A DNA stretch of 63,649 nucleotides, filler included, from Stramenopiles sp. TOSAG23-2 (taxonomy: Eukaryota), in assembly GCA_900128395.1 (NCBI GenBank). It is 12 parts of 12 records of this genome, joined end to end, with 100 filler letters (N's around TTAATTAATTAA, not from the genome) between each part and the next. Parts side by side here need not be neighbours in the genome. Positions count along the whole stretch, not along the records: positions 52,778 to 59,245 come from LT650460.1; 11 more parts are not named here. One strand, 5' to 3'. Positions 52,778-59,345 of this stretch are shown piece by piece. The notes under the pieces were generated by a model. That model searched no databases. It was not told where the DNA came from and was given only the letters and a program-made list of their open reading frames with translations. Position 1 is the first letter of the stretch. Each line of letters begins with the position of its first letter. The position numbers and the translations under genes are program-made.

Positions 52778-53026
52778 TAAAACTTAATTAGAGGTATTTT
52801 TTATCAATTGAACTAGAATTGATACTCTTTCTACTTGTATAAAAGGAATTTGTGATAGTGCTGTATTAATAGTAAATTAGTATCGTAGTAGGCCTAACAA
52901 AAGTTTTTATAGCAAAAGCAGTGCAAAATTAAAATAAAAAAAAGAAGTTCACAAGTAGTCGTGCTCGTAGTATACCATGGTATACGTCAAAAAATTCTCT
53001 TCTTCTTCTTCCTTGTTCGTAAAAGA
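52778..53026 (+). repeat. Left arm of 249-bp inverted repeat (cut by contig start)
   Basis: Reverse complement of 58888-59136, read base by base (taaaacttaattagagg...ccttgttcgtaaaaga). Confidence 0.95.
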
Positions 53027-53645
53027 GCTAAATTTATATATCATCAAAGAGAAAGGTATGTGGGATCAGCTTGATAAATGGAGTCAGTTAAGAAGACAAG
53101 AAGCGTACGATGATGAAGCAGAAAAGAATCTTCAGCCTTTGCAAGAGTGGTGGCGAGAAAATGGGGCTACACGTGCGAAGAAAAGATCGCATGAAAAAAT
53201 TCAAGAGGAAGAGGCGAAAATTGAAAATTTAAATGCACGATTGGAAGAAGAAGACGATGATTATATTAAAGAAGTCTTCAAATCTCAAATTGCAACTCTC
53301 AAGAGACAGATCACGACAAAAAAAAATCAGTTTTCAAAAAATCATAAACAAGATTATGATGATTATATTAAAGAAACAGATACGCAAAAAAATGTTGTTG
53401 CACGGTTACGAGAAAGGCTATCCCAACGTGACAATGAAAATGATGACGACGACGAAGAAGAGAACGATGATCAAGAAGACTCTGAAGAAGAAGAAGAAGA
53501 CTCTGATGTTGAAAGCGATGACGAAGAACCACCAAAAAAAAAGCAAAAGAAAGGTGCAACAACAACGACGACGAAAACAACGCCAAGCAAAAAAGGAAAA
53601 GGAAAAAAAAAAAAGAAAAAGAAAAATTTAAAACTTGTTAAATGA
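52977..53645 (+). CDS. Hypothetical charged protein (coiled coil, acidic tract, Lys-rich tail); first ATG lies inside the inverted repeat, alternative ATG at 53058
   Basis: 222-codon ORF with D/E run and KKKKKKK C-terminus. Confidence 0.55.
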   Translation: MVYVKKFSSSSSLFVKELNLYIIKEKGMWDQLDKWSQLRRQEAYDDEAEKNLQPLQEWWRENGATRAKKRSHEKIQEEEAKIENLNARLEEEDDDYIKEVFKSQIATLKRQITTKKNQFSKNHKQDYDDYIKETDTQKNVVARLRERLSQRDNENDDDDEEENDDQEDSEEEEEDSDVESDDEEPPKKKQKKGATTTTTKTTPSKKGKGKKKKKKKNLKLVK

Positions 53646-54030
53646 CTATCACGTATAAGAGAAAAGAAACTGTCAAAAGTCGTATCAAAAAGTGTAAGAA
53701 GAATGTTATATGTACAAGAGCAACAGGGCGAGTTAGTAAGTTGCTATATTTAAAAAAATTAAAAAGTAAAAACATTATTTTTTTTTGTAAAAATGTACAA
53801 CAATGTATATTTTATCTTCTTTATCATCTTTTTCTATATGGTACGGTACAGAATCATAACCAAATTTTTTTATTAAATCCATTCTATCAATTACTTCTTC
53901 AAATGTTAAATCATACATTTTAAGAAACATTATTTCACTTGTATATATTGTTTATATTTCTTTTTATTGACTTGCAAGACTCAATTTTTTTTAGTAAAAT
54001 AAAATTAGTATGGACGTAGTATTGTAGTTG

Positions 54031-54127
54031 CAAAAAATTGAAATGGATTTTACTACATATATGGTAGGCAACAACTAAAAACACAAAGCACAAGCAGTTA
54101 AAAGACCAAAAAGCCAAAAATGAGTTC
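54031..54127 (+). promoter_or_regulatory. Putative NCLDV-type early promoter cassette, copy 1
   Basis: caaaaaattgaaatggattttactacatat..gtaggcaa..aaaaacacaaagcacaagca..aaaatgagtt, upstream of ATG 54120. Confidence 0.55.
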
Positions 54128-54383
54128 AAGTACAATATTAAACAAGGAAGAGAAGCTAAATCAACTTCGTGAATTACTATCACTCCATAAGATTTTTAGA
54201 CCAATAGATTGTAAATTCTTGGATTACTGTTGTCATGTACAAGGAAGCTTTTGGATCTCTCGTAAACAAGCTAAAAGAGATTTTCCTACATGTAAAGTAA
54301 AACAATATCTTACAGCGGAAGAAATTTTAAAGCACTTAATAAAATATAATCTAGAACCTCAAGATATAAGAATATGGAATTGA
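54120..54383 (+). CDS. Small hypothetical protein, virus-like context
   Basis: 87-codon ORF directly downstream of the AAAAATTGA cassette. Confidence 0.5.
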   Translation: MSSSTILNKEEKLNQLRELLSLHKIFRPIDCKFLDYCCHVQGSFWISRKQAKRDFPTCKVKQYLTAEEILKHLIKYNLEPQDIRIWN

Positions 54384-54496
54384 AGTTTATCACATAAAAA
54401 ATTTATAAAAAAATCAAAAAAAATCAACTTTTTTAATCTAATAAAAGGGTATATACCATATACGAAAATCAATAATTTATTTAATTTTGATTTTTA

Positions 54497-54580
54497 CAAA
54501 AAATTGAAATGAATTTTTACTAGATATGTTGTAGGCAATAACAAGATAAAAACACAAAGCACAAGCAACGAAAATGAGTT
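54497..54580 (+). promoter_or_regulatory. Putative NCLDV-type early promoter cassette, copy 2
   Basis: caaaaaattgaaatgaatttttactagatat..gtaggcaa..aaaaacacaaagcacaagca..aaaatgagtt. Confidence 0.55.
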
Positions 54581-54622
54581 TAAGTAAAAGCAGACAACAA
54601 AAATCAGTACCACCACAATAGT

Positions 54623-55123
54623 CTAACAAAAGCTTATCGTAATTTAGCAAAATATATGGTGGAAAAAGAAATGTTGTTTTTGGTAGAATTTATTACTTCA
54701 CGAGACTACTTATATAGTGTTGATAGTGATTTATTAATGCTCAATAATAAGATAATTCCAGCAGAAGATTTTATAAAACAAACTGATAAATATTATTATA
54801 AATATCACCATTTTTATGAGTTGCTTACTGTAAAAGGGACAGAATTATATAATATGTACAAAGAATATTGTAATAATAATTGCTATTCATACAAGGCAAG
54901 TGAACAAAAATTTTATAACCAACTAGCAAAATATAAATTTACAGACTTTGAAAGCCAAATAGGAGGTACAACTAGAACAATAGAATATAGATTTTATCCT
55001 GTACTTTTAATGAAAGACTTAATAAAAAAAGGTGTATATCCAGACACGGATCTAATACACTTTGAAGATTTTGAAGGAAAAACCAAACAAGAAAAATCAA
55101 ATATTCCGCAATTAAAAGGATAA
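54623..55123 (+). pseudogene. C-terminal (winged-helix-like) fragment of a D5/P4-type primase-helicase
   Basis: LTKAYRNL..KGTELYNMYKEYCNNNCYSYKASEQKFYNQL resembles the LY..Y..[WY]C......F...L motif. No Walker A is present, and the cassette-linked ATG at 54574 is out of frame and stops after 15 codons. Confidence 0.5.
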
Positions 55124-55271
55124 CAAAATAAGACTTATAAATCCTCGCAAGAACAATAATGTTTTTGAAATTCCATTAACTAGTGGATTAGGTGAGCTTG
55201 TATTTAAAAAATACTCAGCTATTAATAATGATGTTATAAGTAACACTGACTGGTATAATTTTTACAGAATT

Positions 55272-55541
55272 ATGGAATTCGTGGATTATCCTCGTAGAGC
55301 TTTAGGTAGGAACAGAAAATTGCAAATAGCAAATTATGTAAGAAATAATATGGGAAATCAACCACAGCAAGGAGGTGTACGTTCTACAAACAACGGAACG
55401 AGTAATGAAGCAGTTAGTCTGCGATGTTCAAATGATATTGTGTGTCCAGAATTAATTATTCCCAGTGATAGAAGGATAAAAAAAAATATAGTTGATGTTC
55501 CCGGCAACAAAAAATCCACCACAGATATTATAAATATTTAA
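55272..55541 (+). pseudogene. Truncated fibre-like gene with start of a peptidase S74 / intramolecular chaperone motif
   Basis: IIPSDRRIKKNIVDV matches SDxRxKxNI; the ORF stops 13 codons later. Frame is open without ATG from about 55116. Confidence 0.55.
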
Positions 55542-55700
55542 TTGTATATTTGACTATTTGGTATATTTGTATTTATATTTGGGTTTGGCATTGCGGGTAT
55601 ATAAACCCAGCATTGCGGGTCAATAAATAGGGCATGCGGAGAATAAATTGTACCAGGTGTATTTATTTATTCATTAAATTAAATACTTACTTCCATGAGA

Positions 55701-55729
55701 TGTAGTAAAAAATCCATTTCAATTTTTTG
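55701..55729 (-). promoter_or_regulatory. Putative NCLDV-type early promoter cassette, partial copy 3
   Basis: Reverse complement reads caaaaaattgaaatggattttttactaca, nearly identical to the start of copy 1. Confidence 0.5.
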
Positions 55730-56176
55730 TAAAATTACTAGAAAATTGAAAAAATACATAAAAAAAGGTTGCATTAGGTTATCTCAAAGTAAGTATTTTA
55801 TTTATTTAATTAAATTATCGTTTTTAAAAAGGGTTGATACCCATTTATAAAACAGGTCTTTTATTAAAGGGTGTGTGATATATATATCATTCATTAATTT
55901 TTAAAAACGAGGGATCCGAGGGGGTTTAGCCCTTTTTTTTTTAGGGTGGGGGGATAGAAAAACAAAATCATCAAAAAGAGACCTAATAGAATTTAGTGCC
56001 CAACCCCCTCGGGTTCTACATTTTTATTGAAATTCTTTATATTTAATGACGCAATATATCTTTTATTTTAAAGTGGCTTAAAGAAATAGTCTAAAAAAAC
56101 ACAAATAATACTGCTATTTTTAAGAAAAAAAGTGAAAAAAACCTAAAAAATTGATATTTTTTAATAAAAATTAGTC

Positions 56177-56459
56177 AAAAAAACCTAAAAAATTAGTATT
56201 TTGTGTACAAAATTAGCGATAAAATACTGCTTTTGCTTATTGATAATGGCAAAAAAACCTAAAAAATTAGTATTTTGTGTATAAATATTAGCGATAAAAT
56301 ACTGCTTTTGCTTTTTGATAATGGCAAAAAAACCTAAAAAAAAAATACACTAGATCCAAAAAAACTTAATTTTATGCACTAAATTTTTATAAAAAAGTGA
56401 AGTTTTAAAAATGCACTAAATTTTTATAAAAAAGTGAAGTTTTAAAAATGCACTAAATT
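56177..56459. repeat. Two A-rich direct tandem repeat blocks (~75-bp unit x2+, ~37-bp unit x2+)
   Basis: caaaaaaacctaaaaaattagtattttgtgt..ttagcgataaaatactgcttttgct twice; atgcactaaatttttataaaaaagtgaagttttaaaa twice. Confidence 0.85.
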
Positions 56460-56609
56460 CTTGTTGCAGAAGTCAAAAAAAACGACAAAGTACACTAGGG
56501 TTTTTTTAGGGTTACACGACTATTTTTTCCGAAAAATGACCAACTATTCAAAAACGGTAAAATGGGGAATTGTATTTACCTGCTAATGAATCCGAGAATC
56601 CTAATTATT

Positions 56610-56806
56610 AATAAAAACCGGAGTACTAACCTTGGTCATTTAAGGACTTACTACATGTTGTGGTGCTGGTAACGTGTTACCAGTGCCACAGCATGTACCT
56701 AACTCTAATGCTATGAGACTGCTAATGTACATTAGCAGGTGAATAGCATAGGGAGTTAGGCGGGGTTAGTCCTTAAATGACCAAGGTTAGTACTCCGGTT
56801 TTTATT
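56610..56806 (+). other. T/Y-shaped foldback: 39-bp perfect outer stem enclosing two hairpins
   Basis: 56610-56648 is the exact reverse complement of 56768-56806; inner hairpins at 56652-56697 and 56698-56760. Confidence 0.9.
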
Positions 56807-57422
56807 TTTATTTTTGACGACATGCACTTCTTTTTTGTTCTTTCCGAAGGCCTTTTTTATTCTATATATTATTATATATTAAATACGGTATTAATACCAG
56901 GCGGCACCCAATTTTAAGGATTTTGAAATTTCACCTAGGGGCATACACCACACAGTTTTTTTTTGATGTGCCTTATATATCATCTTAGTATGAAGTTTGG
57001 TAGGTTTCTCGTAATTTGTACCTAGCATATTTGGAACGCTATTACAGCGTAGTGTGATACTGTATTTCATCATTTCTTCACCTTATAATTTGTGTATTTT
57101 TGCTTCATCCGTTCATCCGGCACAAATTAACATGATGATGCATATAATTTATATCATATTAGAATTGCACAATTTATAGAAGTATTTTGATGAAATTGAT
57201 ACATTAAATGGAAAAAGATATTTATTTTAAAAAATGAAAATTATGACATACAAAGATATTTATAATATATTTTATTAAAATTGACAATTATATTACCTAA
57301 ACATATTTTTAACACACAATCAACATCAAATAAATTATTATATCCCAATAAATAAATATCCAATCTTATGAAAGGTGGGTAATATATATTAAAATGAATC
57401 GTAGTCTTTTTTCAACATTTTT

Positions 57423-58802
57423 TCACAATTTCAAAATACAACCAATCGGACCATGATCACTATAAATTTCATAATCATCCATTGTAAATGAATCAACTAC
57501 CTTTGGACCTTTTCCTTTTTTACTCATCATGCTTTCCGATACAATAGCATAATCTAATCGTAATCCTCGATTCCAATCTTGATTGCCTGAACGTATACTC
57601 CAATATGAAAAACGACCAGTTGCCTCTGGATGAAAACTACGAAATGTATCAACAAAACCATTTTTAGATAATAATTCACCAAATGAATCACGTTCCTTTG
57701 AAGTTAATCCAGCACTTTTTTCTAGATTTTTAAGTCCAACGTATTCCTCCTCTCTTGTTTCCGGTGCGTTTGGAAACCATGGTCGTGGATAAAAATTATG
57801 AATATCACGAACATCATAACAAACATTTAAATCCCCAACAAGTAATACTGGTTTTCTTTTCTCAAGTGATTTTAAATATTTTCCAAATGAAATATCCCAT
57901 GTATTTAAGCGATAATCAAGGCGTTGTAATTTCTGTCCGGAATTTGGTACATATGCATTTACAATATATACTTGTGGCAATTCAAGTGCAATGACCCGCC
58001 CTTCACATGTTGCAATATTATCTTTTTTATTTTTATCACCCAAACCGTATAAAACATTTATTACTTTTGGTGCATCTGAAATTGATATAGATGACTTCAA
58101 CGATGGTAATGGCGGTGAATCATCTTCCTCTTTCTTTGTTGCATCTGCTTTTTGTTTCTTTGAAGTAGATGATTTCTTGGAGAAAAAATCTTTCATAGAT
58201 TTTTGTTTTTTCGTACTTTTTTTACTACTGCCGTCGTCGTTATTATTACTACTACAACGTACAAACATTGCAACTCCACTATATCCTTTTTTTGCTGGTG
58301 GTCCAGAACATGTCCAATATTGAGCATAATCAGGTAAAATTTCTTTCATACTTTTTCCAACATCTTCCACATGTTGTTCTTGTAATTTATGTTCTTGCAA
58401 AGCAATGATATTTGGACGTTCTTTTTCAACAACTGTTAAAAATTTCTTAATTCTATCTTCGTTCTTAATGAGACCACGCAAACCTGCAACATTCGTAGAC
58501 ATGACACGTAAATACTCATTTTTTTTTTCATTTAATACTACACGTTTCATTTCAGTTTTTGGTAAAATGGTTTTTCCTTTTTTCTTGGCTGGAGATTGTT
58601 TCTTCTTTTTCTTTGCTACTGGTAATGGTTTCTCAACTTCTGCATTATTATCATCATTACCTTTTGTCGTTGTTGTTGTTTTCTTTCGTTTTCCCATGAT
58701 ACTGTTCACTTTTAAAATATGCGGCGGTATGATGTAAAATAATTTGGTATAATAAAGACGACTGTTACTTCTTGTTTTGTTTCCTATCAATCGTGATAAC
58801 AT
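57423..58802 (-). CDS. APEX1: AP endonuclease, APE1/exodeoxyribonuclease III family
   Basis: NVAGLR, IIALQEHK, KKGYSGVA, EGRVI, NAYVPNSG, GDLNV, VDTFR, FSYWS, GLRLDY, SDHGP; Lys-rich N-terminal extension. Confidence 0.93.
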   Translation of the reverse strand: MLSRLIGNKTRSNSRLYYTKLFYIIPPHILKVNSIMGKRKKTTTTTKGNDDNNAEVEKPLPVAKKKKKQSPAKKKGKTILPKTEMKRVVLNEKKNEYLRVMSTNVAGLRGLIKNEDRIKKFLTVVEKERPNIIALQEHKLQEQHVEDVGKSMKEILPDYAQYWTCSGPPAKKGYSGVAMFVRCSSNNNDDGSSKKSTKKQKSMKDFFSKKSSTSKKQKADATKKEEDDSPPLPSLKSSISISDAPKVINVLYGLGDKNKKDNIATCEGRVIALELPQVYIVNAYVPNSGQKLQRLDYRLNTWDISFGKYLKSLEKRKPVLLVGDLNVCYDVRDIHNFYPRPWFPNAPETREEEYVGLKNLEKSAGLTSKERDSFGELLSKNGFVDTFRSFHPEATGRFSYWSIRSGNQDWNRGLRLDYAIVSESMMSKKGKGPKVVDSFTMDDYEIYSDHGPIGCILKL

Positions 58803-58887
58803 ATCTTTTTGTTTGTCTTCTTTTTATCGTCTCGTTGAATCTCTACTGTATTTCTATTTGATATATTGAATCGCACAATCTATTTAT

Positions 58888-59136
58888 TCTTTTACGAACA
58901 AGGAAGAAGAAGAAGAGAATTTTTTGACGTATACCATGGTATACTACGAGCACGACTACTTGTGAACTTCTTTTTTTTATTTTAATTTTGCACTGCTTTT
59001 GCTATAAAAACTTTTGTTAGGCCTACTACGATACTAATTTACTATTAATACAGCACTATCACAAATTCCTTTTATACAAGTAGAAAGAGTATCAATTCTA
59101 GTTCAATTGATAAAAAATACCTCTAATTAAGTTTTA
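58888..59136 (-). repeat. Right arm of 249-bp inverted repeat, immediately upstream of the APE1 gene
   Basis: Reverse complement of 52778-53026. Confidence 0.95.
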
Positions 59137-59345
59137 AGTGAAATATCAAAAAAATACCTCTTAGACTACAAATATTGCACTACAACTATATAAAACCTCA
59201 AACACAAATATTTTTGCCAATTTTATTTTCATTTTGAGAAGTTCCNNNNNNNNNNNNNNNNNNNNNNNNNNNNNNNNNNNNNNNNNNNNTTAATTAATTA
59301 ANNNNNNNNNNNNNNNNNNNNNNNNNNNNNNNNNNNNNNNNNNNN

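Follow-up and report, generated by a model that had tools for sequence, protein, structure and literature searches.

The window analyzed here is a stretch of 63,649 nt from Stramenopiles sp. TOSAG23-2, and its subject is a 197-nt DNA foldback at positions 56610–56806, which is to be read only within its own contig (52778–59245). On the + strand, this segment folds as a three-way junction with 87 pairs over its 197 nt, comprising 82 Watson–Crick pairs, five G.T pairs, and no A.C pair (DNA fold). An outer stem, in which all 39 positions of the 5′ arm (56610–56648, + strand) form Watson–Crick pairs with the 3′ arm (56768–56806), encloses two abutting inner hairpins. The first of these, together with a 2-bp junction helix (56650–56651), occupies positions 56650–56697 and has 21 pairs and a 4-nt loop. 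In the minimum-energy fold, 56652–56672 pairs with 56677–56697, and a repeat search delimits 22-nt arms that are 86% complementary; the only non-Watson–Crick pairs are three G.T pairs on the + strand, at 56658/56691, 56664/56685, and 56665/56684. Hairpin 2 (56698–56760) has 25 pairs in the fold, arranged as 9, 7, and 8 pairs plus one G.T, and is capped by the 20-nt palindrome CTGCTAATGTACATTAGCAG, which accommodates the cap’s 8 pairs and 4-nt loop. A junction linker (56761–56767) then follows, with CGGG unpaired, GT paired with 56650–56651, and a final unpaired T; it is invariant in all four copies described below. The 3′ arm of the outer stem ends in CCGGTTTTTAT(T), and the T5 run at this end is likewise invariant among the copies.

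The foldback is real and lies far beyond chance. Folded as DNA, the + strand reaches −79.7 kcal/mol versus −19.3 ± 3.1 kcal/mol in 200 shuffles (z −19.7), none of which is as good, and the − strand reaches −74.3 kcal/mol (z −16.5). The G+C content of the element is 0.416 versus 0.292 for its contig. An initial annotation of this DNA had described a perfect 39-bp outer stem, a first hairpin whose only mismatches are three G-T pairs, a second hairpin capped by a 20-nt palindrome, and a segment GC-richer than its surroundings, and each of these descriptions is confirmed. The noncoding RNA that it had also listed as an option finds no family match and is kept as an option below: no tRNA was seen in the foldback, Rfam 15 gave no match at gathering score in the window, and 55500–57000 gave chance-level matches only (E 0.3–7). 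No second copy of the foldback occurs in the 63.6-kb window.

Other copies were found in metagenome contigs, which were scanned once with a 22-nt stem word and yielded three contigs (L001, L002, and L003). Both L002 and L003 carry the whole element, at 94.6% and 90% identity, respectively, over 315–330 nt, and L001 starts inside the element and has its right half only. There are, therefore, three full copies of the foldback (window, L002, and L003), and identity across the three independent metagenome contigs is 90–95%. The same fold is found in all three full copies, with standard pairs in 98.3% of 286 pair cells and five cells unpaired, even as L002 and L003 each differ from the window by 8–9 substitutions. 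Because the structure is reproduced in three independent metagenome contigs, the foldback is not an artefact of the source assembly.

Several of the substitutions bear directly on the fold. At two pairs, both partners have changed. The pair 56622/56794 reads A-T in the window, but it is C-G in L002 and G.U in L003 (L001 has G at 56794 in its right arm, the left arm being missing), and 56621/56795 reads U.G in L003 where the window and L002 have G-C. In hairpin 2, the other copies show three one-sided changes, all of which lead to G.U, and three substitutions in L002 convert the internal loop of the window’s hairpin 2 into a continuous stem. The three G.T pairs of hairpin 1 are kept in all full copies, and unpaired cells occur elsewhere in that hairpin (C.A in L002; A.A and G.A in L003).

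A second property of the foldback is its strand bias. When transition-type mismatches are counted with each position taken once, the + strand has nine or ten G.T events versus a single A.C event (binomial p 0.012–0.021). The G.T events comprise five positions common to all copies plus four or five that are lineage-specific, and the sole A.C event is at position 56661 in L002. The lineage-specific changes behind G.T are three A-to-G and one C-to-T, so deamination bias alone does not explain the pattern. The initial annotation had favored folding of the + strand, with C-to-T deamination as an alternative source of the same mismatches; the preference is strengthened by the counts across copies, and the alternative is insufficient by itself. 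Moreover, the + strand folds better than the − strand in each of the three full copies, by 5.6–6.1 kcal/mol with DNA parameters and by 14.7–18.9 kcal/mol with RNA parameters. The + strand is also the strand whose 3′ end sits at the boundary where homology among the copies ends.

The foldback forms the outer end of a conserved non-coding unit of ~1.1 kb (55687–56806, + strand), a candidate terminal repeat. The unit is collinear with L003 back to window position 55687 and with L002 up to that contig’s end, so that the inner (left) flank is collinear in all three copies with a visible left flank (window, L002, and L003). Conserved non-coding blocks alternate with variable tandem repeats (42 nt × 2.5, 75 nt × 2.2, and 37 nt × 2.3), and there is no conserved ORF (open reading frame) in 55687–56806. 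Directly inside the foldback lies the conserved non-coding block D (56496–56609, + strand), 114 nt of which align continuously among the same three copies; it contains TAGGGTTTTTTTAGGGTTA and TATTTACCTGCTAATG. A further motif, CTGCTAATG, occurs three times, once in block D and twice in the hairpin-2 tip. Since the left flank is common to all three copies, the 197 nt are not mobile by themselves, and they form the outer edge of a ~1.1-kb or longer unit that adjoins different cellular genes.

On the outer (right) side, the flanks are unrelated in all four copies. BLAST homology stops at window positions 56805–56815, and in every copy it ends within about 10 nt of the outer stem. Beyond this boundary, the window has an apurinic/apyrimidinic (AP) endonuclease gene, L001 a kinesin gene, L002 BRCT-like and PAN-like ORFs (with Pfam matches that fall below curated cut-offs), and L003 72 nt of unrelated sequence. 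The AP endonuclease gene (57423–58802, − strand) is of the cellular type (APE1/ExoIII family; Pfam Exo_endo_phos, E 8e-15), with Arabidopsis ARP (E 3e-48) and human APE1 as its best solved relatives, and is read as host flank; L001 and L002 lack it on their right sides. Neither it nor the kinesin of L001 has close relatives among the viral contigs. In L001 and L002, 170–190 nt separate the foldback from the start codon of a downstream gene reading away from it, kinesin and the BRCT-like ORF, respectively (coordinates L001 282–3410; L002 840–1412 and 1–711), and this placement may reflect a preference for, or survival in, intergenic DNA close to promoters.

A signal also comes from public sequencing runs. 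A word-level search was made with sampled words of 56300–57100, a stretch in which the conserved 311-nt block (56496–56806) has a share of 0.39. Of these words, 0.33–0.49 were present in thirteen DNA runs of marine metagenomes (six studies), and 0.91 in one small run, probably the source and not counted as independent. Two metatranscriptome runs contained 0.33 and 0.20 of the words, with the qualification that RNA runs may contain DNA; further RNA runs (X17–X20) had small shares of 0.12–0.19 and are not used as evidence. Such shares would fit a conserved end that is present without the window’s flank. Pattern scans with two stem patterns and one block-C pattern in viral contigs, and with a stem pattern in genome contigs, gave no matches in any case.

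Inward of the terminal unit, the neighborhood is virus-like, and the first sign of this is a set of promoter-like modules. Block A, at the unit’s inner edge (55690–55760, − strand), is a copy of the modules at 54028–54110 and 54475–54575, and carries AAAATTGA at 55719 on the − strand and at 55742 on the + strand. The module at 54475–54575 (+ strand) lies upstream of the helicase-fragment ORF, with AAAATTGA at 54500, 75 nt before an ATGAGTT start. It resembles, over ~100 nt, the module at 54028–54110 (+ strand), which lies upstream of ORF 54120–54383 and has AAAATTGA at 54034, 86 nt before the ATG; in the modules ahead of small ORFs, 75–86 nt separate the motif from a downstream ATGAGTT start. 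A module of this kind is also present in L003, where it runs on into that contig’s own small ORF. Altogether, AAAATTGA occurs eight times in contig 52778–59245 and ten times in the other 57 kb of the window, and in 53651–56806 there are six occurrences versus 0.7 expected. Mimiviruses have this motif in their early promoters (PMC5294985).

The second sign is the ORF at 54584–55120 (+ strand), which matches the C-terminal part of a putative primase-helicase. It sits 1.5–2.2 kb inside the foldback, reads towards it, and has three phmmer matches in 1.84 billion representatives. One of these, P0003 (900 aa), has DUF5906 at residues 555–665, and its residues 712–872 align to nearly the whole ORF, including 21 residues before the first Met. 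Weak Pox_D5 and PHROG DNA-primase matches were also found for this ORF, and Pox_D5 is present in 16–17% of the members of its top ESM Atlas clusters; the word-based protein search with its 155-aa form gave no match. DUF5906, VirE, and Pox_D5 are presumably marks of D5-type primase-helicases. As the rest of P0003 is not encoded anywhere in contig 52778–59245, the ORF is either a truncated remnant or a stand-alone domain. Downstream, an ORF of 141 aa (55116–55538, + strand) offers leads only: a PHROG tail-fibre C-terminal match (E 0.0016) and ESM Atlas Peptidase_S74 clusters (score 0.90, with few shared features). The module before the helicase-like ORF opens a 15-codon ORF, MSLSKSRQQKSVPPQ (54575–54622), the start of which is homologous to that of ORF 54120, and the longer helicase-like ORF (54656) is in a different frame from it; ORFs 54584–55120 and 55116–55538 overlap by 5 nt in different frames. 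Judged from their frames, these small ORFs look like the products of gene decay or frameshifts.

Relatives of P0003 lead to viral contigs. P0003 alone found no match among these, and an alignment of 19 relatives found 40 loci, of which only four (L004–L007) are full-length. These four reside on IMG/VR viral contigs of 22.7–24.6 kb with 27–28% G+C. More generally, P0003-type proteins carry DUF5906/VirE domains, and the longest contigs of the relatives measure 22.7–24.8 kb. A Pfam search with nine ORFs of L006 found only a glycosyltransferase family. The sole BLAST match between the terminal unit and L004–L007, an unconvincing one, is 42 nt at 81% in L006. A covariance model of the foldback (R1) found only the window’s own copy and, at E 0.1, an unrelated tandem repeat that ends contig L040. 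The latter (L040 11124–11215) consists of about six tandem copies of the 16-nt GACATGTCGGGATGCT, which fold as a long hairpin, and is unrelated to the foldback.

As for the wider setting, the window is made up of 12 small contigs, nine of ~6.5 kb and three of ~1.37 kb, which are joined by N44-TTAATTAATTAA-N44 linkers; repeats reported across the contig joins are linker matches and not biology. The remaining contigs encode a kinase with ankyrin and TIR domains, DNAJC11, a DEAD-box helicase, an acyl-CoA oxidase, and a WW-repeat protein, in long intron-free ORFs and at about 30% G+C. With such ordinary eukaryotic genes, intron-free ORFs, and base composition, the source is read as a fragmented assembly of an AT-rich protist. 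Within the contig of the foldback, the first 249 nt (52778–53026) are the exact reverse complement of 58888–59136, upstream of the AP endonuclease gene. Both stretches share the start MVYVKKFSSSSSLFVK, the left one continuing as a 222-aa acidic ORF and the right one stopping after 17 codons, and the repeat could be a real inverted duplication or an amplification or assembly chimera.

Four further features of the terminal unit deserve mention in their own right. First, TATTTACCTGCTAATG (56573–56588) is complementary at 15 of 16 positions to the 3′ arm of hairpin 2 (56730–56745), which is better than that arm’s match to its own 5′ arm, and in L002 the 5′ arm of hairpin 2 has shifted towards the TATTTACCTGCTAATG-type version; this suggests copying between the sites, alternative pairing, or a shared protein site. 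Second, TAGGGTTTTTTTAGGGTTA in block D (56507–56525) has two telomere-like TTTAGGG-type heptamers, ~85–100 nt inside the foldback, which are present in L002 and L003 with small changes. Third, the tandem repeats at 56115–56341 contain recurrent CCTAAAAAA-type motifs. Fourth, a G-rich imperfect inverted repeat at 55902–56026 has 32-nt arms that are 75% complementary, and is not alignable in L003.

The best account, given about an even chance, is that the foldback is a palindrome at the end of an endogenous element, either virophage/polinton-like or a satellite, that resides in the nuclear genome of a marine protist with AT-rich DNA. The window’s copy would then be a decayed one, reduced to some small ORFs that follow promoter-like modules, a putative primase-helicase’s C-terminal part, the ~1.1-kb non-coding end, and the foldback, beyond which host DNA begins. 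On this interpretation, the homology boundary would be the true genome end, an inverted second copy would be expected at the other end, and the hairpin would act in replication. When the element is active and linear, its strand with a 3′ end at the terminus (the + strand here) may fold back into the three-way junction. The folded 3′ end could then prime synthesis, act as a structure to be recognized, or do both while the terminus is copied or resolved, as parvovirus telomeres do; possible protein sites are CTGCTAATG, with its three occurrences, and the conserved block just inside the foldback. The window and L003 have the 1.1-kb unit in common and differ in the sequence just inside it, a difference that, from the alignment, would suit the two ends of a terminal-inverted-repeat element and would equally suit two different relatives. 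The initial annotation had already entertained a viral terminal hairpin or origin, and the part of that proposal concerning position holds well, in that the foldback lies exactly at the boundary between virus-like non-coding DNA and unrelated cellular genes; a second end and hallmark genes, which such an element should have, are unseen.

Other observations also weigh against a terminal palindrome of this kind. Every copy shows one end only and is embedded in a longer contig; an inverted partner is out of view because the contig stops at 52778, and neither a target-site duplication nor the element’s true size can be seen. Moreover, past the stem, ~36 nt are common to L001 and L002, and a T-rich 20 nt to the window and L003; because these first 20–40 nt pair the copies into subfamilies, the foldback may be subterminal by that distance and not strictly terminal. 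The covariation that the initial annotation had proposed to test in homologs is found as two pairs changing on both sides, and the inner hairpins are kept, but four sequences do not make the covariation significant alone, as 52 of 500 shuffles reach the observed value. The inner hairpins stand in the same order in all four copies, a small sample, so nothing in them points to terminal resolution with flip/flop forms, and the tolerance of G.T pairs suits RNA equally with single-stranded DNA. The excess of AAAATTGA is partly that of three copies of one module, and the motif was noticed after the module. The proteins of the four IMG/VR contigs are only 28% identical to the ORF fragment, and neither BLAST nor the covariance model finds a similar foldback in L004–L007, which also show no palindrome at the visible contig ends and no AAAATTGA enrichment. 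Finally, none of the virus hallmarks (capsid proteins, packaging ATPase, protease, integrase), nor a complete replication gene, occurs in the 4 kb left of the foldback, that is, inside the boundary. As the copy is a remnant devoid of hallmark genes, membership in the virophage/polinton-like group is not claimed.

The best-surviving alternative, albeit a rather unlikely one, is that a transcript running rightwards from AAAATTGA at 55742 or 56147 has the foldback as its structured 3′ end, with the RNA ending at or being processed in the junction, either as a giant-virus-style hairpin 3′-end signal or as a source of small RNA. Mimivirus transcripts end at hairpins, and several properties of the foldback would suit such a role: the wobbles on the + strand are exclusively of the G.U type, the advantage of the + strand in every full copy is largest with RNA parameters, AAAATTGA stands on the + strand at the unit’s start, the outer stem is closed by the invariant T5 run, and the two metatranscriptome runs noted above share words with the region, subject to the same caveat of DNA in RNA runs. 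The terminal unit, however, contains no ORF that this signal could serve, and Rfam gave no family at gathering score and, up to E 10, nothing above chance level. A 39-bp perfect stem and nearly invariant loops would be unusual for a functional RNA, and this explanation leaves the stop of homology at the foot of the stem unaccounted for in all four copies. As a variant, transcription by RNA polymerase III is made unlikely by the unit’s internal T runs (T6, T7, and longer).

It is improbable that the foldback is not an end at all and instead lies inside a small episome-like element, as its replication origin or a hotspot of recombination. On this view, the tandem repeats would be iterons, the small protein resembling a helicase C-terminus their binder, and the differing right flanks the outcome of recombination at the palindrome. 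The tandem repeats do adjoin the palindrome, CTGCTAATG occurs both in block D and, twice, in the hairpin-2 tip, ORF 54584–55120 has Pox_D5-like leads, and the 249-nt exact inverted repeats could bound the whole 6.5 kb. Nevertheless, the right flanks of L001 and L002 contain ordinary eukaryote-like genes with no AAAATTGA, and the AP endonuclease is of cellular type. The repeat units vary between copies, and the CTGCTAATG of block D is changed in L003 with no matching change in the hairpin.

Quite improbable, too, is the notion that the unit belongs to a host repeat family, whether subtelomere-type or dispersed and non-coding, with its boundary at the palindrome by chance and no viral role. The finding of the same unit beside different unique genes is what such a family would produce, the telomere-like heptamers and CCTAAAAAA repeats in the unit are suggestive of it, and the share of words in metagenomes suits a multi-copy sequence. 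The promoter-like module common to the unit and the helicase-fragment ORF region argues otherwise, as does the fact that no arrays of telomere repeats were seen, and the strand-specific pairing together with the compensatory change points to selection on the fold.

The weakest contenders, a 197-nt miniature inverted-repeat transposable element (MITE) or foldback transposon and an assembly or amplification artefact, are very improbable: long perfect inverted arms are typical of young MITEs and amplified single-cell DNA does yield fold-back chimeras, but the one copy in 63.6 kb, the lack of a target-site duplication by eye at the stem ends, and the left flank common to all three copies disfavor the MITE option of the initial annotation, and three independent metagenome contigs that carry the structure with substitutions dispose of its fold-back artefact. 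A number of other candidates were considered and rejected. A Helitron end was rejected for want of TC...CTRR termini in either orientation, a 1.1-kb inverted-repeat transposon since neither end of the unit is repeated in inverted form at the other, and the 3′ tail of a long or short interspersed nuclear element (LINE/SINE) on account of the sharpness of both ends and the lack of a reverse transcriptase. Similarly, a telomerase RNA template is set aside because the TAGGG motifs vary among copies, the signal recognition particle (SRP) RNA or other known RNAs for lack of an Rfam match, and a poxvirus-type resolution motif in block D because it is absent by eye.

Returning to the terminal palindrome, its significance stems from the fact that the copying of ends in small double-stranded DNA viruses and virus-like transposons of protists that lack a protein-primed polymerase is largely unknown. 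If the interpretation is correct, a conserved, strand-biased three-way junction at the element’s edge would be a concrete candidate for a telomere or origin, open to testing in vitro. It would also extend the simple terminal palindromes of virophages and polinton-like viruses to a parvovirus-like architecture, and would provide a compact marker of ~300 nt with which ocean data could be searched for this family of elements and for its insertions in protist genomes. A bolder generalization, doubtful at present and offered tentatively, is that one family of double-stranded DNA virus-like elements of marine protists, virophage/polinton-like or satellites of these, replicates or resolves its ends by way of a ~200-nt, parvovirus-like T-shaped telomere. 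Were this so, a primase-helicase would serve the ends in place of an HUH nuclease, and the telomere, together with a 0.1-kb block, would be 90–95% identical among copies, widespread in ocean metagenomes, and possibly transcribed. Among the literature matches listed, none was found that joins a terminal palindrome or rolling hairpin with a polinton or virophage.

Among known systems, the closest in shape are the T/Y-shaped terminal hairpins of parvoviruses, including adeno-associated virus (AAV). A parvovirus-type genome is single-stranded and 4–6 kb long, has a gene for an HUH nuclease and SF3 helicase (Rep/NS1), and occurs as flip/flop isomers. Its hairpins also consist of a long outer stem around two abutting small palindromes; in both cases, the foldback is located at the end of a conserved unit and is formed best by the strand that has, or here would have, its 3′ end at the terminus. 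Moreover, the CTGCTAATG-type motif in the inner flank and the hairpin tip recalls Rep-binding elements. In contrast, the present foldback is larger, measuring 197 nt in all, 46 and 63 nt of it in the two inner arms, and stands at the end of a 1.1-kb non-coding region of an AT-rich element with genes of the double-stranded DNA virus type (a helicase-like fragment and giant-virus-like promoter motifs). Flip/flop is seen in none of the four copies, and no HUH nuclease gene is seen, as the ORFs of 52778–56610 contain no HUH nuclease or SF3 helicase (Rep/NS1) domains; the absence of this gene is weak evidence because the element is truncated.

The closed hairpin telomeres of poxviruses, asfarviruses, and chloroviruses are another instance of terminal fold-back DNA beside tandem arrays in the terminal inverted repeats of AT-rich double-stranded DNA viruses. 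Poxvirus-type telomeres differ in that they are single imperfect hairpins, which become one long palindrome in replication junctions; the present foldback is not one palindrome about a single center, because its two inner hairpins differ. A looser likeness is to transpovirons, the ~7-kb linear plasmid-like elements of mimiviruses (PMC3671162). To our knowledge, terminal three-way junctions have not been described for them. Transpovirons are similarly small and AT-rich, with few small genes, long terminal inverted repeats, and a dependence on giant viruses; the likeness is one of description.

The nearest counterparts in terms of biology are the endogenous virophages and polinton-like viruses of Halocafeteria seosinensis, as described in a 2026 bioRxiv preprint (10.64898/2026.07.28.741278). 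In that account, palindromes are located at the extremities of terminal repeats beside target-site duplications, and they are associated with replication genes that are not of the protein-primed type and stand near one end; hairpin priming is proposed, as in parvoviruses and poxviruses. Those palindromes are simple, for example 52 nt, whereas a 197-nt three-way junction is found here; in addition, a capsid gene, an integrase, a second end, and a target-site duplication are unseen in the present element. What the two would have in common is a position at the extremity of a terminal repeat beside host DNA, a heterotrophic protist host, and genes of the primase-helicase type, not protein-primed, near one end (10.64898/2026.07.28.741278). 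By analogy, the element described here would fit the picture drawn in the preprint, and would add to it the T/Y shape and the bias for the strand ending 3′ at the terminus.

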